Shown one piece after another: positions 1-11,912 of a stretch of DNA of 31,354 nt. A program made the translations under genes and the position numbers. The notes under the pieces were generated by a model. The model was given only the letters and a program-made list of their open reading frames with translations. It was not told the origin of the DNA and made no database searches. Position 1 is the stretch's first letter, and every line of letters begins with the position of its first letter. Source of the DNA: a virus (lineage: Duplodnaviria > Heunggongvirae > Uroviricota > Caudoviricetes); the IMG/VR virus record IMGVR_UViG_2802429225_000007, positions 1 to 31,354 of that record; one strand, given 5' to 3'.

Positions 1-160
1 GGTCTTTCCTCATTATGTAGCTTATTGCGTCATCTGCCACATGGCAGGCACGGGCAATATCAGACTCGGTCAAAGTCTGTTTCCTGACGCTGGCCGAGAG
101 TCGGCCAATTTTGATATCAAATGCGGAGAGCAGAGTTGCTCCCGGTTGCCATCGCAGCAT
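1..160 (-). CDS. hypothetical early-left-operon protein; N-terminus in window, gene continues past window start
   Basis: ATG at 160-158 (minus) preceded by GGAGG (rc of ~166-170); frame open to position 1; under 60 aa in window so absent from ORF track. Confidence 0.3.
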   Translation of the reverse strand, partial: MLRWQPGATLLSAFDIKIGRLSASVRKQTLTESDIARACHVADDAISYIMRKD

Positions 161-209: not shown

Positions 210-392
210 TTATTTCTGATTAGGCGTAATCAGTTCTGGTGGGGTGAATGCCGATTTCTCCCGCGTGACCTTAATGTTTTCTGGCAGGTGTAGCCCAAGT
301 TCGCAGCGACTCCGTGCTTCAATAATGCCATTGGTACCATCGGCAAGTACCAGGTGAACCGCGTCACCACGCTTTAATGTGAGTTTAAGCAT
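210..392 (-). CDS. small hypothetical protein of the leftward early operon
   Basis: 60-aa ORF; start overlaps stop of the upstream gene (translational coupling); GAGGG-type RBS upstream. Confidence 0.4.
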   Translation of the reverse strand: MLKLTLKRGDAVHLVLADGTNGIIEARSRCELGLHLPENIKVTREKSAFTPPELITPNQK

Positions 393-961
393 TAGCGTAC
401 CCTCAGTGACCGTTCGCCGCGTTCCAGATGTGCGCCTGGTACCGGGTTTAGTAATTCTGCTGGCGGTGTTTCTCCACGCGCCAGTATTTCGGCTGTAACA
501 GCCTCCGCAGATTCAATCACTTCTTTAATGGCTCGTTTGTTTGGTGTAATAACCGTTTCTACATCAACAAGTGACACACCCTCATACTCGTCCGGGATCT
601 TATCTTTGTTATCAATAATTACCCGGATAGCCCCCTGTGCATCAGTAAATGTGTTTTTTGCGGTTTTCAGTTTATCCAGGCCAGCAGCTTGCAGGCAGGC
701 GAGCATATGCTTCCGAATTGCTTTTTCCTTGCCTTCAAAGGACGTCTTACGGGTGGCCAGGCGAGACATTTCTTCAGCGCAGGTACTGGCATTGCCCTGT
801 AAATTGCGGCAGATGACCATCATGGCGTCCAGTTTGTCTCCCAGTTCTCCTTCCATACCTTCAAGCGTGTCGGCGATCATCTCTGGCGTCAGTTCGTCGG
901 AGGTTTCTAACAGGTCAATCAGACTGGCATATTCTTTTGCAATAGCGATAGCTGTGCTCAT
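392..961 (-). CDS. phage Gp157-like protein (recombination-module associated), putative
   Basis: 189-aa acidic protein directly downstream of and overlapping the large recombination-like gene; family assignment from memory of Siphovirus Gp157-type proteins, not verified. Confidence 0.4.
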   Translation of the reverse strand: MSTAIAIAKEYASLIDLLETSDELTPEMIADTLEGMEGELGDKLDAMMVICRNLQGNASTCAEEMSRLATRKTSFEGKEKAIRKHMLACLQAAGLDKLKTAKNTFTDAQGAIRVIIDNKDKIPDEYEGVSLVDVETVITPNKRAIKEVIESAEAVTAEILARGETPPAELLNPVPGAHLERGERSLRVR

Positions 962-3174
962 GCTGTTTGTTCCTGTGCGGCGGTGAGGGCGGTGAGGCGT
1001 TCGGTTTTAATGTCGGTGATACGGCGCAGACGTGATCCCAGATACGATGAATATTCTTTATCGCCTTTGGCTTCCGCTGCTTTCCTGTGTACATCCACTT
1101 CGCGGGCGATGAGGCCAAATACCTTGTTTACTTCGTTGGTGGTTACCGCGGCGGCCAGCGTATTGGCAACGTTGATAAGCTTCTCATCCAGTTCCTTACG
1201 AAGACGGGTAGCATCTTCCGCATTCTCGCTGGCATTCTTGATATCAAATTCAGCTTTATTCCTCTGGCGGTATTCCGGATTGTCGTACAGGCCCATGAAA
1301 ATATCGGCGCTGAAACCGAGAGGGGATAGCGCTTTCTTTACAGCATCCGTCCAGGACTTCTTCGGCGCTTCGCCGTCGCTTGTAGGTCCGTATTTAGTGT
1401 CGTAGATATAAGGTGTGCATCCGTAAGCCTCGGATTCACCGCGCACCCCATTCAACATGTACCAGACTCTAACTTTCATGGTGTGGTGCATTTCACATAG
1501 GTACCCGCCAACACCGTCTTGAATCAGATCCCATTCTATTTTTTCACCAACCTGTTTTTTGCGAACTATCGGTGCGCCTTTATCAAAACGCTCTTCCACC
1601 ACCTCTACACCCCAGCCAATACCAAACGGCCCAAATTCGCGAGTCGCTTTCATCGCTATATAAGTGCCGTTGATGGATGTGCCGCCGCCGTTCTGAGAGA
1701 AAGCTTTGGTGAAGCGCTCATCGGTTTTGAATACGTTCTTCCACAATGCCAGGTTATCCGTGTCGCCGGAGTCCTTTAACTCCGTTTCGATAGCTGAGAT
1801 TGCATTCTGCCGCTTGTGCTCTTCGGTATGGATCCGCTCAACCAGCGCGTCAACGTTCTGCACCAGATCCTTTACCTGCTCGCTAAGTTTTTCTTGTGGA
1901 GGAGTCTCTTCTGCCAGGGTAATTGCTGCAGGTTCCCTCTGTGATACGGCGTTATTTTCAGGTACGTCATACACATGGCGAGGCGTGACAAACTGCTCAC
2001 GCAACTGCTGCAAACTACGTTCTCCAGCATTTGCAGCTTCGCTTTTTTCGCCATGATTTGAGGGTGTTTCTGACATCATCCCATCAATTGAGAATCGTCC
2101 GCCGCCGTGGTTGGTGACTTTTACATCGTCCTTCGGTACTGCTTCCTTTGGTTTCTCTTCAACAGCATTTGCATCACGCTTCCCGTTAGCTTGCAGCCAG
2201 TTGTCGATGTGACTGCGCAGGGATTGCGGGAAGTGGTACGTGTCTTTTGCAGGGGCGCTCTGAACGACACCGAATACGGATGCCCGGTCATAGGAAAGGA
2301 TCTGATCCGTTGTGCGCAAGGCCATTGACCAGCGTTTAAAATCCTCCCGGTCCTGGCTGATTATTTCGTCTGCCGCTTTCAGGACGCTGGGAGTGATTTT
2401 TTCCGGGCCAACAGGTAACAGGGCGCAGGCAATTTCACGATCCAGTGTGGCGTGCGTCTGTTTGTAAGGACGTGCGGATGCTGTTTCTGGTATTACCTCC
2501 GGCAGCATTTCATCGCGTTTACCGGGATTCTCTACCCATTTTTTTATAAATTTGGAGATAGTCCAACTGGTCGGGTTTTGTTCCTGGGTATCGCAACTTG
2601 CCAAAATTGCATGTACCAGATTATTCAATCCAGCAATATGCATGTACTCGATGGGCTTACACGCCACCATGGCATCAAGAACGATGCGGTTAAACGCGTC
2701 AACCTCATCCTGACTGTCAGTATCACTGTTGTCGAGCATCTCCAGGTATTCACGCGTCTGCGCAAGCAATTCACTGTCGACTTCGTTGGCATCGTGGCTG
2801 AACAGCAGGACGGCGGCGAAGCGTTCACGAGCAGGCAGTTTCATCAGGTCGCTAACCTGTGCGATATCTGCTGAACCGCTATCTGAATCAGCGGGGGTGT
2901 TAACTACCCATTTTTCGCCATCAAAACTGTGTTCTGTGGCGAACGTCTCATCAAACTCACCGACGCCTGGGCGCGGTTGGCCCGGGGCATCTTCCCAGAT
3001 TTTAGGTTTGAAATAGTTGTCGCCGTGGTCAGGGTAGGCTTCCCACAATTTGCCGATGATGATGTTCTCGGCAACTTTTTTGTTAGGGGCGTCGATGGCG
3101 ATGGCCAGCGCCGGGATCGCGCCGTTTTTGAGCGCGCCTTTTTTCGCTTCTAACAAGCCGTTAAAAATGGTCAT
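958..3174 (-). CDS. large recombination-module protein with C-terminal Erf/Rad52-like single-strand-annealing-type motifs
   Basis: 738-aa ORF; C-terminal region (GPFGIGWG...YGPTSDGEAPKKSWTDAVKKALSPLGF) resembles SSAP cores; start ATG at 3174 preceded by GAGGAAAGACC. Confidence 0.4.
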   Translation of the reverse strand: MTIFNGLLEAKKGALKNGAIPALAIAIDAPNKKVAENIIIGKLWEAYPDHGDNYFKPKIWEDAPGQPRPGVGEFDETFATEHSFDGEKWVVNTPADSDSGSADIAQVSDLMKLPARERFAAVLLFSHDANEVDSELLAQTREYLEMLDNSDTDSQDEVDAFNRIVLDAMVACKPIEYMHIAGLNNLVHAILASCDTQEQNPTSWTISKFIKKWVENPGKRDEMLPEVIPETASARPYKQTHATLDREIACALLPVGPEKITPSVLKAADEIISQDREDFKRWSMALRTTDQILSYDRASVFGVVQSAPAKDTYHFPQSLRSHIDNWLQANGKRDANAVEEKPKEAVPKDDVKVTNHGGGRFSIDGMMSETPSNHGEKSEAANAGERSLQQLREQFVTPRHVYDVPENNAVSQREPAAITLAEETPPQEKLSEQVKDLVQNVDALVERIHTEEHKRQNAISAIETELKDSGDTDNLALWKNVFKTDERFTKAFSQNGGGTSINGTYIAMKATREFGPFGIGWGVEVVEERFDKGAPIVRKKQVGEKIEWDLIQDGVGGYLCEMHHTMKVRVWYMLNGVRGESEAYGCTPYIYDTKYGPTSDGEAPKKSWTDAVKKALSPLGFSADIFMGLYDNPEYRQRNKAEFDIKNASENAEDATRLRKELDEKLINVANTLAAAVTTNEVNKVFGLIAREVDVHRKAAEAKGDKEYSSYLGSRLRRITDIKTERLTALTAAQEQTA

Positions 3175-3204
3175 TGGTCTTTCCTCATTACAGGTCAGTG
3201 GTCT

Positions 3205-3525
3205 TTAGTAGGGGATTTCAACGGTATCTGGCGTGTATTCGATGCAAAGTAACTGCTGGATTTTGTCATCGATAGCAGCAATACGCTGTTGGGCGTCGGC
3301 GGCTGTTTTCTGTTTTTGCTCACTCAGTTGCTCGACCTGTAAACCGATGATGTCGATTGGCTGAGGCTGGTTGACGGTAATTTCAATTTCGCGGCTTTCC
3401 AGAAGGATGTACCTGTCTGGAAAATTTTTTGACATATCAACAGTCGCAACAAGCAGCTTTTCGTGGCTGAAAGTTGAAGTTGCATAATGAATAAAGAGTG
3501 TTACTGGGATGGTGCGCGCTTCCAT
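3205..3525 (-). CDS. hypothetical early protein, first gene of leftward operon
   Basis: 106-aa ORF with AAGGAG RBS 7 nt upstream of ATG at 3525. Confidence 0.5.
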   Translation of the reverse strand: MEARTIPVTLFIHYATSTFSHEKLLVATVDMSKNFPDRYILLESREIEITVNQPQPIDIIGLQVEQLSEQKQKTAADAQQRIAAIDDKIQQLLCIEYTPDTVEIPY

Positions 3526-3679
3526 AGCGACTCCTTGGTGGGGTATACTCAGAACCGATCAGCGGCTCTGTCGTTGGTCTTTCCTCGGTGTAAGGTTGGT
3601 CCCTTGCACCATATCCGAATGGTTTGGTCGCCGTTCGGGGTAACTGGCCCGCCTTGTGCGGGTCTTTTGCCATCTAAAG

Positions 3680-3702
3680 GGTGCCGTCTTTCCGGCTGTC
3701 AG
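3680..3702. repeat. 23-bp direct repeat GGTGCCGTCTTTCCGGCTGTCAG, copy 1, in leftward leader
   Basis: exact 23/23 identity with 4132-4154. Confidence 0.7.
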
Positions 3703-4131
3703 GGCTGGTCATGCCCGGTCTTTCCTCGTTGCGCCTCTCTGCGAGAGGCTCTGGCTTTCACCAGAGGGTCCCAATAATTACGGTGTAGCGCCCGGAATCG
3801 AACCGGGTAACGGGCAGGGAGTTCCCGTCAAACACCTGTTCACCACAACCGGGAGCGCACTCCGCCATTTCAAAATTTAACGACAAAGCTCAAAGTTGAG
3901 TCGATGAAGTGCGCTCTCGTGTTGTCGCCAGGACTCTTCCCTGGTGGTCACACCGTATCGCCTTGATGGTGAATCAATCGCTCATACCTGGCTGTGGCTT
4001 GCACATTCCGGCTACCTGCTATGGAGACAACGCGTTAAGGCTCCGCTTCCATCCAGACCGCTTCGACACATGTGCCATATGCCGGTGAAGTCTTTCCCTC
4101 TGTCATCGTGTTGGCGCCGACGCGCAAAATT

Positions 4132-4154
4132 TGGTGCCGTCTTTCCGGCTGTCA
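4132..4154. repeat. 23-bp direct repeat GGTGCCGTCTTTCCGGCTGTCAG, copy 2, adjacent to a hairpin at 4155-4171
   Basis: exact 23/23 identity with 3680-3702; followed by TCAGAA-cttgt-TTCTGA hairpin. Confidence 0.7.
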
Positions 4155-4204
4155 GAACTTGTTTCTGAACAACTGCCGCTGGGTAAGCGTTGTTGATGAA
4201 AGTG

Positions 4205-4233
4205 ACTTTACAATTTGTATTTGTAATTGTCAA
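4205..4233 (-). promoter_or_regulatory. candidate leftward early promoter (pL-like)
   Basis: minus strand TTGACA (4233-4228), 17-bp spacer, TAAAGT (4210-4205); overlapped by TTTGTA(A/T)T operator-like repeats. Confidence 0.5.
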
Positions 4234-4352
4234 TGTGTTTTTAAAAAATAATTTGTAGTGAGGGGCAAAAAAATATTCACTGTGTAAAGGTGTTTTTGTG
4301 TTAGGGGGAAAGTTGCATGCCAGCAGCGGCTGGCCTGGAAATTTGAACTGAA

Positions 4353-4781
4353 CTATTTTGTCTGGTTTTTGGCTTCAAGTAGTTCTTTTAGCAGTAGATC
4401 GAAGTGCTCTCTTTTTTCTTTTAGCTCATTGATTAATTTATTTTTTTCGCTCTCAGGCAGTCCTCTGAATAGTTGCAGTAGAGCCTGTTCTTGCGGGGTT
4501 AGTTCTTGATTGTAATTACCCGGGTGTAGCGTGGATTCATCCAAATATTCCCCTTCATTCATGAAGAAAAAATGAACAGGGTATCCGGTCACTTTTGCTA
4601 GTTTGTCTAATTTATCTTTTCTTGGAGTTACCCCATTACACCATGCCTGAACTGATTGAGCCGTAACCCCAATATGGCGAGCTAGCTCAGATTGAGACCA
4701 GCCTAAGTCTTTTAGAATCCGTTGTAGTCGGCTAGCAAAAGCCATGTTTTTCGTTTTTGTGTTCATACCGTAAGGATACAA
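4353..4781 (-). CDS. prophage immunity repressor, XRE-family HTH, no LexA/S24-like autocleavage domain
   Basis: 142 aa; N-terminal HTH (SQSELARHIGVTAQSVQAWCNG); divergent from cro-like gene; C-terminus short and coiled-coil-like, no Ala-Gly / Ser-Lys peptidase region. Confidence 0.7.
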   Translation of the reverse strand: MYPYGMNTKTKNMAFASRLQRILKDLGWSQSELARHIGVTAQSVQAWCNGVTPRKDKLDKLAKVTGYPVHFFFMNEGEYLDESTLHPGNYNQELTPQEQALLQLFRGLPESEKNKLINELKEKREHFDLLLKELLEAKNQTK

Positions 4782-4864
4782 GGTTTAATTGTAGGGAGCA
4801 TTGCAAATATAATTTGTAATTACAGTTATTATTTGTAATGATGACGCGGACACAAGGAGTCCAT
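4782..4864. promoter_or_regulatory. divergent promoter/operator region between repressor and cro-like gene
   Basis: candidate pR TTGTAA (4814-4819), 17 bp, TAATGA (4837-4842); TGTAATTACA palindrome at ~4815-4824; repeated ATTTGTAAT half-sites shared with the pL region. Confidence 0.5.
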
Positions 4865-5095
4865 ATGGATAAACAACTGCAAGACAAAATTCTTTCCGTA
4901 ATGAGTCAATCCGAGTTAGGGCGGCGATTAGGGAAAAAACCACAAACGGTAAGCCTCTGGTTCAAAGGACGGGTTCCCGGTGAAGAGGTTTTGCGCACAT
5001 CTGAAGCTCTTGAATGGCGCGTGACCCCTCATGATCTTAGACCGGATCTTTACCCAAACCCAGATGACAGCTTGCCTAAAACGGAAGCAGCTTAA
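4865..5095 (+). CDS. Cro-like / YdaS-like small HTH regulator
   Basis: AAGGAG RBS 7 nt before ATG at 4865 (track start 4838 is probably too early); HTH SQSELGRRLGKKPQTVSLW; position right of repressor. Confidence 0.6.
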   Translation: MDKQLQDKILSVMSQSELGRRLGKKPQTVSLWFKGRVPGEEVLRTSEALEWRVTPHDLRPDLYPNPDDSLPKTEAA

Positions 5096-5153
5096 CTGTT
5101 GGTGAGCCCCAAATCTGATTAAGCGTAATCAATTTTTAGCGACAGGAGACGCT

Positions 5154-5648
5154 ATGGAAAACCCAGAGGAATTACAAAAAGAGATTTTGACCTGGGCGGC
5201 AAGGGCAGGGCAGGAACTCGTCACGATTGAAATCTGCCGAGCCTGGTTCAGCCAGGGACGCAATGATGAGTTGAGACTACATGAATTTGAGGACACGGAC
5301 GGCAACGTGGACTGGAGAGCCATCAACAACAACCGGCAGAAAATCTTTCGCTGGTTACGTGGCGAGACAACGGCGGCGCGCCGAAAAACTCAGGTGCTGG
5401 CCAGTGTGATGAAAGCCGTGCTACCCGCAGAACGGCGGGCTCGTCTGGAGTCGCCGGGCGAGCCTGTTTTGCTGGCAACGCTGGCGGCAAAAGAAGGGGT
5501 GGAAGCGATTAACGCTGTACATCTCCACTTCGCGCCAGAGTTAACTATCCAGGAAATTGACGAAGCAATAGCGGCGCTGGTAGCGACGCGAGGGGCAGTG
5601 ATAAGCACTGCGCAAGACCACCATGCAGAGCGCCTGACCAGCGTTTAA
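5154..5648 (+). CDS. CII-position regulator (YdaT-like), putative
   Basis: 164-aa ORF immediately downstream of cro-like gene, as in Rac-type immunity regions; family assignment by position and memory only. Confidence 0.35.
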   Translation: MENPEELQKEILTWAARAGQELVTIEICRAWFSQGRNDELRLHEFEDTDGNVDWRAINNNRQKIFRWLRGETTAARRKTQVLASVMKAVLPAERRARLESPGEPVLLATLAAKEGVEAINAVHLHFAPELTIQEIDEAIAALVATRGAVISTAQDHHAERLTSV

Positions 5649-5668
5649 CTTATACCGAGGAAAGACCG

Positions 5669-5893
5669 ATGTTAAGACATATTGACCGTATTACCTGGCG
5701 TAACGGCTGGCACCTGAATGGGCGCCCGGCACATGTTGCAGAGATCCGCCCCATATTCGATGGCCGCGTCGTAGCTGCACGTTCTGTGTGGGAAAAGTAC
5801 GAAGAAGAAAAAGCGAAACTGCGTGAGCAAAATCTCTCTGGCGCTGCCTATGAGGCTGGCTGCCGCGTTCTCTCAGAGGCTTTGGGCATATGA
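5669..5893 (+). CDS. hypothetical protein
   Basis: 74-aa ORF; start preceded by CCGAGGAAAGACC motif; stop overlaps start of the initiator gene. Confidence 0.5.
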   Translation: MLRHIDRITWRNGWHLNGRPAHVAEIRPIFDGRVVAARSVWEKYEEEKAKLREQNLSGAAYEAGCRVLSEALGI

Positions 5894-6900: not shown

Positions 6901-8288
6901 ATCCGGAAGAACTGGAAGCGATCGTTCTCGCTGGTCTGATTAACGGTGGCGCGACGCCTGACGCGTTTGATGTGATTGCCACCACTCCGGAGGAAGCTTT
7001 CAGCATTGTGTTTCACCGCCGCGCTTTTAGCGAAATCAAAAAGCAGGCGCTGGCGAACGGCTTCATAGACATGCTGTTTCTCAGTGAATCGCTGGGCGGT
7101 TCCAGCCTTGCGGACCTGTCTCAGATATCCCGAATCCCGGCGACGGTAGCGAATCTGAAAGGCTATGCCGGGAAAATGGTGCAGGCGTGGCGGAGCCGCA
7201 AAATGGCGGCATTGTTGCAATCTGGCGCGGATGGTATCCGTAACGCTGTAAACCAGAGTCAGCGTGATGAGGTTATTGAATCTCATGTTGCTCAGGTGCT
7301 GGATATGAGCGCCGCTACCGGCACAGTCCAGCCGGTACACATCAAAGAGCTGTTACCGCTCTACATTGACACCGTTGATAAACGGATGTCTGGCGACGCG
7401 CAGGAAATGATGCTGAAAACCGGAGTCGAGGATCTGGATGTCGCCCTGGGCGGTATCAACATGACCGACCTTGTTGTGGTTGCCGGTCGTCCAGGCATGG
7501 GGAAAACGGAATTTACCCTGAAGATTATCGATGGCGTTACCGCAGATGGCGGTGGCGCACTGTTTTTCAGCATGGAAATGGGCGCTCAGCAGATTGTTGA
7601 ACGTACCGTTGCCGGGGCTGGGAATATGTCCTCATCGCGTCTGCGTAATCCAAAAGAAATGGACGATGAGGACTGGTCGCGATTAACCGCTGCGCTGGAG
7701 ACCATGCAGGATCGCGATATCTGGATTGTTGATGCCACTGATTTGACGATTGAGCAGATCCGCGCCATTGCAGAGACTCATAAACGCCGTTATCCGCACC
7801 TGAAGTTGATTGGTGTTGATTACATGGGCTTGATCAAAAAACCGAAGGCCGAGCGCCACGATCTCGCTGTGGGGCATATCTCCCGCAACATGAAGACTAT
7901 GGCCATGCGTCTGCATACCCCTGTTTTTGCTCTTAGCCAGCTTTCCCGCCAGGTGGATTCTCGACCTGCTGGCCAGCGTCGCCCGGTGATGTCGGACCTG
8001 CGCGATTCCGGCAGTGTTGAGCAGGACGCTGACAGCATTTTGTTTTTGTACCGCGATGAAGTTTACACACCTGATTCACCTGCAAAGGGTATCGCCGAGG
8101 TGATTATCGGTAAAAACCGTTCTGGCGGGGCAGGTGAAATTATTTATCAGGAATTCAGGAATGGGCATTTCCTGCCAGTTGATCAACACGTAGCACGCGA
8201 AAAATTACGCATCCAGAAGGAGGCAGAACAACCGAGAAAACGTGAAAAACGGTATTCAAACAAAAACTTTAATACGGACCCCTTTTAA
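6897..8288 (+). CDS. replicative DNA helicase, DnaB family
   Basis: Walker A GRPGMGKT, SQLSR and RDSGSVEQDADSILFLYRDEVY motifs typical of the DnaB C-terminal domain. Confidence 0.85.
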   Translation: MNPEELEAIVLAGLINGGATPDAFDVIATTPEEAFSIVFHRRAFSEIKKQALANGFIDMLFLSESLGGSSLADLSQISRIPATVANLKGYAGKMVQAWRSRKMAALLQSGADGIRNAVNQSQRDEVIESHVAQVLDMSAATGTVQPVHIKELLPLYIDTVDKRMSGDAQEMMLKTGVEDLDVALGGINMTDLVVVAGRPGMGKTEFTLKIIDGVTADGGGALFFSMEMGAQQIVERTVAGAGNMSSSRLRNPKEMDDEDWSRLTAALETMQDRDIWIVDATDLTIEQIRAIAETHKRRYPHLKLIGVDYMGLIKKPKAERHDLAVGHISRNMKTMAMRLHTPVFALSQLSRQVDSRPAGQRRPVMSDLRDSGSVEQDADSILFLYRDEVYTPDSPAKGIAEVIIGKNRSGGAGEIIYQEFRNGHFLPVDQHVAREKLRIQKEAEQPRKREKRYSNKNFNTDPF

Positions 8289-8326
8289 CCACGCCTGACC
8301 AGCGTGAAATAACCGAGGAAAGACCA

Positions 8327-8737
8327 ATGACCACCACTCCAGGCAAATTAGAGTACCCGTCGGACAAAGGACACATAGACGACGGTAAAAACTATCTCGA
8401 CGTCATTTTGTGGAATATGAACGTCGGGCCACGTGCGCGCACTCGCGCGGTTTTTGTGCCAAGACCCAAAGCAGGCAATTTTTCAACCCCTGCTCAACCT
8501 GCCTGTCAGGCATCCGTGGCCACAGCGCCAGCAGTGAAACGTAAGGGGAAAACGCACACCGGGATCGCGATTCGCAGAAATGGCGAGCGGCAAGTGAAAC
8601 TCCACGAAACAGCGACAACCTGGTGTGCCTCACCGCATGAAACTTACGACAAGATAACCGGGCAGCGCATTGGCGCGCCTGGTCGCTGTCGCCTGCTGCT
8701 GAGTTCCATCACTCCGATAGCAAAGAAAGGGGCGTGA
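8327..8737 (+). CDS. hypothetical nin-region protein
   Basis: 136-aa ORF; CCGAGGAAAGACC RBS motif before ATG. Confidence 0.45.
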   Translation: MTTTPGKLEYPSDKGHIDDGKNYLDVILWNMNVGPRARTRAVFVPRPKAGNFSTPAQPACQASVATAPAVKRKGKTHTGIAIRRNGERQVKLHETATTWCASPHETYDKITGQRIGAPGRCRLLLSSITPIAKKGA

Positions 8738-11344: not shown

Positions 11345-11730
11345 CTATGTTCCTTAAGTGTAGAACTCGTCTAACTGTTTTAACCATCCAGAACTCTATG
11401 AATAACATAACATACCAGTCGTTACGAGAGTAAAAGAAAACAATTGGTGACGTTTCTGTATCCGAAATATATCAAATAATAGATATTAAGAATTGTTTCC
11501 TAATATCTATTTGAGGTGTTTATGGATAATATCTATGACGACGAATTGTTCGCAGGGTTTATTGCAAGAGGGGAGCTACATAGTGTTGAGTACCCACTGA
11601 ATGTAGAGAATGCGGACACAGGCTGTTTGAAGTTGATTGAATTGACTTAGAAAAAGCCCGGGGCTATAGTTTCCGCGCAGCCGCAAAATCGGTTGCCGGG
11701 ATTGGCGTCCCGGATATCTAAGTGACGCAT

Positions 11731-11751
11731 AGCCGCGTTAGCGGTTTTTTT
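11731..11751 (+). terminator. candidate intrinsic terminator
   Basis: short GC hairpin (GCCGC-gtta-GCGGT) followed by T7 run. Confidence 0.3.
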
Positions 11752-11912
11752 ATGTGTTAGGCACGGCCACATTCGCATTATGGTGGGCTGTGTGGGGGCT
11801 TCTGCGGAAGCGCCGGGTTCACTTAGCCGGTTACGCCAACCCTGCACAGTTCACCACCAGATGATTGGCGTCGCTGGTGGTGATGAAAAAAACACTAAGT
11901 GAGGCCACTGCG

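Follow-up and report, generated by a model that had tools for sequence, protein, structure and literature searches.

The early-left leader and its structured RNA

This work concerns the gene-free leader that lies at positions 3,526 to 4,204 of IMG/VR record IMGVR_UViG_2802429225_000007, a tailed-phage (Caudoviricetes) sequence whose whole length of 31,354 nucleotides (nt) is called the window below. The locus belongs to a Rac-like lambdoid prophage, of which it forms the immunity and early region, with a repressor gene, divergent genes for YdaS and YdaT and, to the left of a pL-like promoter, the ~670-nt leader followed by three early-left genes (Table 1). An earlier note, made from the sequence alone, had suspected an unannotated functional RNA in this leader, and a covariation-backed structured RNA was found there, with no conserved protein gene. 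We regard it as virtually certain that the leader contains a single member of a widespread family of structured RNAs that has escaped annotation, in which a pseudoknotted core is closed by a helix named P6.

Table 1. Coordinates of the features of the leader, of its surroundings and of a second RNA locus in the window
Feature	Position	Strand	Details
Gp157 protein	392-961	-	after the exonuclease gene
738-aa exonuclease, phrog_2489	958-3174	-	downstream of the 106-aa gene
First real early-left gene, 106 aa, phrog_2479, function unknown	3205-3525	-	intact at 40% identity in homologous loci
3′ part of leader	3526-3780	-	several small hairpins and orphan ribosome-binding site (RBS)/junction linkers, CUGAC(C)AGCC; no conserved open reading frame (ORF)
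23-nt repeat, copy 2	3680-3702	-	edge of segment swapped in other E. coli prophages
D-armless tRNA-like element	3781-3847	-	acceptor-like UGUGGUG/CGCUACA, 7-bp hairpin with 9-nt loop, T-arm, tail CCG
T-arm CCCGG-UUCGAUU-CCGGG	3807-3791	-	GGUUCGAUUCC at 3804-3794
Closing helix P6	3846-3924	-	5′ strand CAACACGAGAGCGCACUUC (3924-3906), 3′ strand GGAGUGCGCUCCCGGUUG (3863-3846); insert between them holds CUUUGUCGUUAA
RNA core	3928-4084	-	covariance-model match
P5	3944-3928	-	CCAGG / CCUGG; loop GAAGAGU
Pseudoknot	3951-3971	-	P4 loop CACC (3971-3968) with GGUG (3954-3951), 14 nt downstream; 100% paired
P4	3977-3963	-	UUGAU / AUCAA
P3	variable		between 21-nt joiner and P4
Near-invariant single-stranded 21-nt joiner	3996-4016	-	GGUAGCCGGAAUGUGCAAGCC; unchanged in four phages (blastn)
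P2a, variable hairpin	4052-4021	-	keeps CCUU
P2	4057-4054 with 4018-4015	-	UCUG / CAGG; encloses P2a
P1	4084-4064	-	CGGCAUAUG / CAUGUGUCG
23-nt repeat, copy 1	4133-4155	-	CUGACAGCCGGAAAGACGGCACC, linker at module boundary; holds small hairpin GCCG-GAAAGA-CGGC (4149-4136)
5′-proximal hairpin UCAGAA-ACAAG-UUCUGA	4152-4168	-	present in minimum-free-energy folds
Early leftward pL-like sigma-70 promoter	4205-4233	-	TTGACA-17-TAAAGT; 10/12 match
Putative operator half-sites in promoter spacer	4213-4227	-	ATTACAAAT exact at 4219-4227, one-mismatch copy at 4213-4221
RacR/CI-like helix-turn-helix (HTH) repressor gene	4353-4781	-	upstream of promoter, same strand
YdaS (Cro-like)	4838-5095	+	divergent from repressor gene
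YdaT	5154-5648	+	divergent; DnaB helicase gene also on plus strand
Linker at real gene starts	5635-5672, 8285-8330	+	
Linker at real gene starts	3190-3170, 1-14	-	
c4-a1b1 targets	11664-11716	+	Rfam
isrK	11677-11751	+	Rfam
C4 RNA	11776-11861	+	Rfam

The structured RNA occupies 4084-3846 on the minus strand and comprises the core helices P1, P2, P2a, P4 and P5, a pseudoknot and P6. A single copy is recognised in the window by the covariance model (3886-4100, 155 bits, E 2.5e-48), the next best hit reaching 6.6 bits. The structure was derived by hand and tested on 41 representatives that are at most 92% identical to each other. As many as 96.5% of the cells are paired, against 28-53% when the partners are slid by 1-3 columns, and compensatory changes on both sides of a pair occur in 11 of the 27 pairs. 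None of 500 shuffles reaches the observed values; the relatedness of the sequences inflates this statistic, to which the slide control is insensitive. The homologs were gathered by exact-match seeds and all come from one bacterial family. The comparison across related phages that the earlier note had advised yielded strong covariation for the core, while formal covariation counts do not support P2a, P3 and the tRNA-like parts. In two sequences, one pair of the pseudoknot changes from C-G to A-U (UAACC with GGUU), and about 60 near-invariant unpaired nucleotides are distributed over the pseudoknotted fold. The strand of transcription is fixed by G-U pairs, which are frequent and would read as A-C in the opposite orientation, and by the common orientation of the RNA and all 38 of the 38 nearby tRNAs.

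P6 lies directly 3′ of P5 in most members, its 5′ strand beginning with (Y)AAC and its 3′ strand ending with GUUGUGG. RNAalifold gave no structure on the ungapped alignment because of register shifts, and per-sequence folding was used instead. Twenty distinct P6 pairs, anchored on the end motifs alone, fold to 15-19 bp, and the duplex of the window reaches -32.4 kcal/mol against -22.0 ± 2.2 kcal/mol for shuffled strands. Compensatory versions of the helix include AAGAGCA/UGCUCUU, GUAGCUCAC/GUGAGCUAC and AAAGGCG/CGCCGUUU, the window having GAGAGCGCAC/GUGCGCUC. The constant unit is the core plus P6, about 240 nt in length.

The RNA stands behind the promoter that the earlier note had recognised at 4233-4205. 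This promoter is the sole promoter-like site of the scanned region (3100-5200), and we infer a transcription start near 4198. The motif ATTACAAAT has three exact copies in the 31-kb window, one in the promoter spacer (4219-4227) and two, at 4812-4820 and 4831-4839, in the control region from which racR and ydaS diverge. Since it is limited to these two places, its copies look like shared operator half-sites, and the pL-like promoter probably shares putative operators with pR/pRM.

The earlier note was also right in calling the leader gene-free and in taking the ATG at 3525 as the first convincing gene start. The seven ORFs of the leader, on both strands, match no Pfam or PHROG family; none is conserved between the promoter and 3525, and stops or frameshifts break all of them in homologous loci, including those of 98.7% identity. 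These two results rule out a coding function for the leader, and the search of related phages recovered no conserved protein-coding gene in it. No N-like antiterminator gene lies between the promoter and 3525, and no arginine-rich N-terminus was seen on reading the sequence of the 106-aa product. In phage BUCT708 (OM816834.1), a 38-aa 'hypothetical protein' is annotated at locus positions 3585-3698, in the gene-free leader downstream of the core, and is probably spurious.

Distribution, genomic contexts and 3′ neighbours

The family escaped megablast, which gave no match against phages, and the core was revealed by more sensitive blastn. A piece of ~170 nt (4084-3917) has counterparts of 70-79% identity in gaps that bear no annotation, in unrelated phages, namely SPN1S and its relatives, Tyrion, SopranoGao, the P1-like D6 and SJ46, and Klebsiella phages, and phage BUCT708 shares the entire leader at 78% identity. 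The alignment displays blocks of perfect identity, among them GGTAGCCGGAATGTGCAAGCC; the stretches between these blocks differ in sequence as well as in length, and the length steps are not multiples of three. Family members occur in more than 170 IMG/VR phage contigs. The exact 21-mer of the joiner is present in at least 120 contigs of this collection, and a second, independent anchor (TCACCANNNNGGCGNTNNGGTGTGA) likewise in at least 120; among the 162 matches listed for that anchor, 110 have the exact 21-mer, and in the remaining matches listed it differs by 1-2 nt, mostly GCAAGUC. The core was further found in 679 of 5426 complete E. coli genomes, at 479 chromosomal places and 217 places on plasmids of ~90-100 kb (P1-like). 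None of these copies is annotated, and one of the listed chromosomes is that of an O25b:H4-ST131 strain. Besides E. coli, the hosts of carrier phages include Salmonella, Klebsiella, Enterobacter and Citrobacter, and 18 of the 19 GTDB species representatives with the exact 21-mer belong to the Enterobacteriaceae.

Three single records deserve mention. The only 21-mer match from outside the Enterobacteriaceae is a 1753-bp contig of a 'Bacillota' metagenome-assembled genome (JAIIAN010000430.1), which is probably a mis-binned fragment of an enterobacterial phage. The BUCT708 record ('Stenotrophomonas phage vB_SmeS_BUCT708') has an immunity region of enterobacterial type despite its deposited host. 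Finally, all that E. coli E24377A (NC_009801.1, 2217032-2217085) retains of the core is its initial 54 nt, which cover P1 and the beginning of P2 at 100% identity and look like a truncated remnant.

Rfam 15, searched at gathering and permissive E-values with the window and 12 related loci, returned only tRNAs and the isrK/C4 locus, and a keyword and sequence search of the literature did not find the 21-mer or a description of the RNA. No Rfam hit backs two likenesses noted by eye, one between the 21-mer and 4.5S RNA, the other between GGCGAU...GGUG and either the fluoride riboswitch or 5S rRNA, and both were dropped. We rate the RNA as a new family of structured RNAs whose general kind is known already.

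As to the genomic contexts, 23 of 43 clusters have a cI-type repressor gene immediately upstream in the orientation of the RNA, which there takes the pL position that it has in the window, and a cII-like gene lies beyond the repressor gene in 20 of the 43 (cI-type calls were made by reading the HTH and the S24 'GDSM' motif). Apart from these cI/cII-type immunity genes, no protein gene travels with the RNA across the backbones of the 43 clusters. In 13 of 41 representatives a promoter-like site precedes the RNA by no more than 250 nt, the background being 7%; operator-like palindromes overlap many of the upstream promoters in relatives, and P1 starts ~10 nt past the -10 element in several phages. 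Other members look like genes of their own. In four loci (L013, L118, L021 and L090) the RNA has its own promoter and is followed, after P5, by a terminator or by nothing, then by a convergent gene; in SPN1S it lies among oppositely oriented late genes, and two related long loci (L091 and L099) end in a strong terminator. In P1-like plasmids the RNA follows a tRNA-Met. More generally, a same-strand tRNA is found within 1.5 kb in 38 of 123 loci, the other 85 having no tRNA nearby. The RNA is thus typically placed straight after an early promoter or beside same-strand tRNAs. A distinct organisation was observed in four IMG/VR contigs (L084, L087, L099 and L122), where the core is one module of an RNA locus of up to ~900 nt that starts at an operator-flanked promoter. 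These long loci display more long helices with P6-like closing strands (CACAAC...GUUGUGG), which other conserved inserts cap, some of them with T-arm-like hairpins (GAGCGGUUCGAUUCCGCUU), and may each encode a large multi-domain RNA.

What follows P6 is also variable. In the window it is a tRNA-like element, which the earlier note had missed together with the structured RNA itself. Like tRNA- and tmRNA-like elements, it has a T-arm (GGUUCGAUUCC, with its UUCGAUU loop) adjoining a 7-bp acceptor-like helix, at a place where relatives have a real tRNA-Arg, and it folds cloverleaf-like in isolation, with a z-score of just -1.24. Nevertheless, it is not a tRNA gene: ARAGORN finds no tRNA or tmRNA gene in the window, the Rfam tRNA-Sec model scores 17.7 bits (E 1.9) against a gathering threshold of 47, 3 bp stand in place of a D-arm, the anticodon-like loop has 9 nt in place of 7, and CCG replaces the discriminator and CCA. 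This geometry follows P6 in 13 of 32 P6-bearing representatives, three of which are true tRNAs starting inside the P6 end, between GUU and GUGG. In SPN1S-type phages, a genuine tRNA-Arg starts in this way, GUU being followed by GUGGCAUUAGCUCAG, and GUGGCAU is the stretch with which true tRNA-Arg genes begin after GUU. Other relatives have a module of UGUGGUG, T-arm-like hairpin and CACCACA, often with CCA, of which a compensatory version exists (UGUAGUG/CACUACA). The tRNA or tRNA-like part is thus a frequent and dispensable 3′ neighbour, and its placement suggests RNase P-type formation of the 3′ end where it is present. At a locus of E. coli SK1144 (NZ_AP018784.2, here L125), a weak intrinsic terminator (GUCCGCACGAUGGGC CAUUUUUU) lies past the T-arm at locus positions 2100-2170. 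This variant, found in 444 of 449 matching E. coli genomes, would yield a discrete RNA of roughly 430 nt.

Hairpin, repeats and mosaicism of the remaining leader

Outside the RNA, the leader holds elements on which the earlier note had built its case. Its hairpin is real, at 4168-4152 and not at 4155-4171, a shift of 3 nt. The 23-bp direct repeat (CTGACAGCCGGAAAGACGGCACC) is exact as claimed, its copies lying at 4155-4133, one base from the position first given, and at 3702-3680. The sense-oriented GGAAAGAC motifs were confirmed as well: five lie in the leader (4146-4139, 4097-4090, 3725-3718, 3693-3686 and 3584-3577), and the window has nine against 1.09 expected, a number that 0 of 100 shuffles reaches, all of them being sense to their own operon. 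A structured RNA does exist in this leader, but it is not made of these motifs, since both GGAAAGAC and the 23-bp repeat are outside the conserved RNA, the copy at 4097-4090 sitting at the 5′ edge of the core.

A linker of the form ...CGCCUGACCAGCG...ACCGAGGAAAGACCRAUG, which contains GGAAAGAC, recurs at the true gene starts of both early operons (Table 1); one of its copies in the leader reads GAGGAAAGACCAACGAC, and its counterpart at the exonuclease gene reads GAGGAAAGACCAAUGAC. As the linker is found at true gene starts, the GGAAAGAC copies of the 3′ half and the 23-nt repeat are best seen as orphan gene-junction or RBS sequences, which, together with the structured RNA, explain the repeat-richness of the leader. 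The GGAAAGAC copies mostly represent the standard RBS linker of this phage, and a role of GGAAAGAC as RNA-element motif or protein-binding repeat was rejected on this ground. The degraded N-like gene envisaged earlier is half right in the sense that orphan gene junctions are present, although they are not those of an N gene. With regard to the boxB hairpin of lambda-type nut sites, whose loop is a GNRA-like pentaloop, hairpins with purine loops occur both in the linker (GCCG-GAAAGA-CGGC at 4149-4136 and 3696-3683, with a 6-nt loop) and in P5 (GAAGAGU, 7 nt), and L084 has a covarying form of the former (GCCUG-GAAAGA-CAGGC). A CsrA sponge and a resemblance to the P4 strand of RNase P were judged by eye only and dropped.

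The linker looks like a shared boundary/RBS cassette and could mediate mosaic recombination. The leader itself is mosaic: two E. coli prophages share its first 206 nt, the block of core, P6 and T-arm, and its final 180 nt, and have ~250 unrelated nt in exchange for the ~100 nt past the tRNA-like element. In E. coli C41 (NZ_CP127252.1, locus 1746-2250), an insertion of ~500 bp lies between the 5′ hairpin and the core, starting beside repeat copy 1, and encodes an annotated 74-aa hypothetical gene with its own RBS. The leader consequently tolerates a gene insertion upstream of the RNA. Elsewhere in the window, the segment 17001-20000 has a GC content of 0.30-0.37 against ~0.50 in the rest and is probably foreign cargo or a moron.

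Possible functions and kinship with known RNAs

On the explanation that we favour, the RNA would be an autonomous functional module, an early non-coding RNA that is probably freed by processing and acts on a conserved host component, and would not be a device tied to the genes that follow it. We consider this reading to be evenly poised between true and false. According to it, the RNA would be the first product of the repressor-controlled early promoter after infection or induction and would fold co-transcriptionally. In relatives, RNase P would then cut at the tRNA or tRNA-like element that begins inside the 3′ end of P6 and so separate the RNA, RNase III or RNase E may contribute to its release, and in some phages its own terminator would end it. 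The released RNA may bind its host partner through the conserved unpaired nucleotides, candidates being RNA polymerase, the translation or RNA-processing machinery, or a defence system. Because the core nucleotides are identical in phages that have no neighbouring protein gene in common, this partner is most likely one shared by Enterobacteriaceae hosts.

Several observations weigh against this reading, whose functional part is deduced wholly from sequence. In L125, the commonest E. coli variant, the 3′ strand of the acceptor is replaced and a weak terminator is present instead, and a BUCT708-type relative has no tRNA-like element at all, so that RNase P processing cannot be universal. No sense-strand terminator follows the RNA in the window, where release would depend on the presumed processing. 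Moreover, the RNA heads the early-left transcript in about half of its contexts, which fits a role in cis too.

Such a role in cis is the basis of an explanation that we regard as unlikely, namely that the RNA is a processive antiterminator or RNA-polymerase modifier, put-like without homology, whose nascent core carries polymerase through terminators and the leader. The position directly behind the early promoter speaks for it, as do the cI-like gene that immediately precedes the RNA on its strand in 23 of 43 clusters, the start of the RNA within a few nt of the presumed transcription start in several phages, the lack of an N-like gene and, in loci of the L013, L118 and L125 type, terminators after the RNA with same-strand early genes further on. 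In addition, an untranslated leader of 670 nt would otherwise be exposed to Rho. In lambda, nutL-N occupies the position equivalent to that of this leader RNA. The nut-like site supposed earlier is not supported, given the lack of an N-like gene and the fate of its boxA: instead of the boxA forms CGCUCUUA or UGCUCUUUAACA the window has GCGCUCCCGG, and the boxA-like string UGCUCUUU is the 3′ strand of P6 in many relatives and is swapped for the compensating CGCCGUUU or GUGAGCUAC in others. The HK022 put elements offer a parallel, as RNAs that act in cis on RNA polymerase and suppress pausing and termination. They measure ~70 nt, form two stem-loops and stand behind both pL and pR (PMC9378689). 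Like putL and putR, the leader RNA is structured, lies close to the promoter where the early-left transcript begins, and belongs to a lambdoid prophage devoid of an N-like gene. In contrast to two stem-loops of ~35 nt, it has a ~160-nt core with five helices and a pseudoknot, plus P6, and it is present in one copy, with none behind pR. The core covariance model gives at best 5.4 bits on the HK022 genome, which is no match, and a permissive Rfam scan of the HK022 immunity region retrieved no put family, Rfam holding no put model. Put homology and the two-copy arrangement were rejected on the single copy, the lack of an HK022 match and the different fold, and the put family named in the earlier note is thus not supported. 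Against antitermination in general stand the members that are terminated stand-alone genes between late genes (SPN1S-type) or lie beside and within tRNA clusters, including those of P1-like plasmids, the separate promoter-like site of the downstream genes in L021, and the absence of a predicted intrinsic terminator to overcome in the leader of the window.

An excised RNA that acts by base-pairing, either as an Hfq/ProQ-dependent small RNA (sRNA) or as an immunity RNA with the 21-mer as its seed, is in our view quite improbable. P4 CI and P1 C4 are RNase P-processed leader RNAs, and they provide a precedent that is also found within the window, where 11664-11861 (+) holds a complete antisense immunity module of the P1/P7 type, all its parts scoring above the Rfam gathering thresholds. 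The prophage thus has a second, already known RNA-based control locus (C4/isrK). Like P4 CI and P1/P7 C4 (CL00128), the leader RNA belongs to an early operon, is associated with tRNA-like, RNase P-type elements and is flanked by direct repeats, as P4 CI is by seqA and seqC, and its long invariant single-stranded stretch is a further argument for pairing. It differs from them by being much larger and pseudoknotted and by repeats that are not complementary to it. The Rfam C4 and c4-a1b1 models match the window only at 11664-11861, with nothing in 3300-4500 even at E <=10. The complementarity of the 23-nt repeat to the RNA (-20.9 kcal/mol) equals that of shuffles (-20.2 ± 2.6 kcal/mol), and neither the repeat nor the RBS linkers exceed shuffles (z -0.27, +0.8 and +0.8), for which reason targeting by flanking repeats, as in P4 CI, and pairing of the RBS linkers were rejected. 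Nor did the conserved single-stranded segments show anything significant against E. coli rrnH 16S, 23S and 5S rRNA and the rrn leader (best z -2.7 among 20 tests). The other precedent, lambda PreS (LPR1), is an sRNA from the early-left operon that acts on the host; it is short, pairs by an Hfq-dependent seed and ends in a poly-U tail, and its conservation is confined to >=92% identity (bioRxiv 10.1101/2024.10.31.621285). The leader RNA resembles it as a non-coding product of a lambdoid early-left operon, but has a large fold conserved across unrelated phage types, with its near-invariant unpaired nucleotides spread over the pseudoknotted structure unlike those of seed-type sRNAs, and its copy in the window has no Rho-independent terminator or poly-U tail.

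That the RNA is catalytic, by self-cleavage or in another way, or serves to mature the tRNA or tRNA-like element attached to it, seems decidedly improbable. Its size, its pseudoknot and its wealth of invariant joining nucleotides would be in line with small ribozymes, and the joining to same-strand tRNAs is tight and recurrent; yet no Rfam ribozyme family matches, 85 of 123 loci have no tRNA nearby, and no cleavage-site signature can be read from the sequence. Very improbable, in turn, is a riboswitch or attenuator of the early-left genes (those for the 106-aa protein, the exonuclease and Gp157). It would suit the 5′ leader position, the high conservation and the aptamer-like core, but no expression platform is constant, the core being followed by P6 and a tRNA, by a terminator, by a convergent gene or by junction debris of 400 nt, and the genes further downstream are equally free to vary and differ wholly among the carriers. 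That the region is a decayed gene or selfish junk kept by recent common descent is barely credible: the 3′ half of the leader is truly junction debris, and E. coli prophages differ in this leader through insertions and replacements, but the core remains 70-79% identical, with compensatory changes, in unrelated phages whose surroundings are all different, and the ORFs across it are not conserved.

In the same vein, the RNA shares its context with GOLLD and ROOL, ornate RNAs of phages and prophages that often lie beside same-strand tRNA genes and whose function is unknown (PMC5737381, PMC12286853). Like them, it is phage-borne, as its presence in IMG/VR viral contigs attests, and lies near tRNA genes. 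It departs from them by its occurrence in Enterobacteriaceae versus Firmicutes, rumen and lake metagenomes, by a smaller constant part (~240 nt with P6) and by its frequent position directly behind an operator-controlled early promoter, and the Rfam models of GOLLD and ROOL match neither the window nor the 12 related loci. The leader RNA would be most akin to put, P4 CI, C4 and PreS in action, is most akin to GOLLD and ROOL in context, and falls outside each of these families.

Returning to the autonomous module acting on a host component, a bolder version can be put forward tentatively, as less probable than improbable. The core-P6 RNA may found a new functional class, the first product that many unrelated enterobacterial temperate phages make upon infection or induction, and its invariant tertiary core would let it target a conserved host machine directly. 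Such a class could reprogram RNA polymerase, disarm a defence system or an RNA-processing enzyme, or perform catalysis as a new ribozyme.

To conclude, our results bring to light an RNA that is common, being present in about one in eight complete E. coli genomes, and yet is absent from Rfam and from all annotations inspected. The annotation of its carriers can be corrected, since spurious 'hypothetical proteins' are now called across the RNA, for instance in phage BUCT708 and E. coli C41. The family also offers a model, tractable in E. coli, for the puzzling tRNA-associated RNAs of phages, a new fold for structural work and a candidate for RNA-based transcription control or anti-defence. Its first-transcribed position, its retention across otherwise unrelated phages and its conservation argue for an important early function in the life of these phages that has not yet been accounted for.

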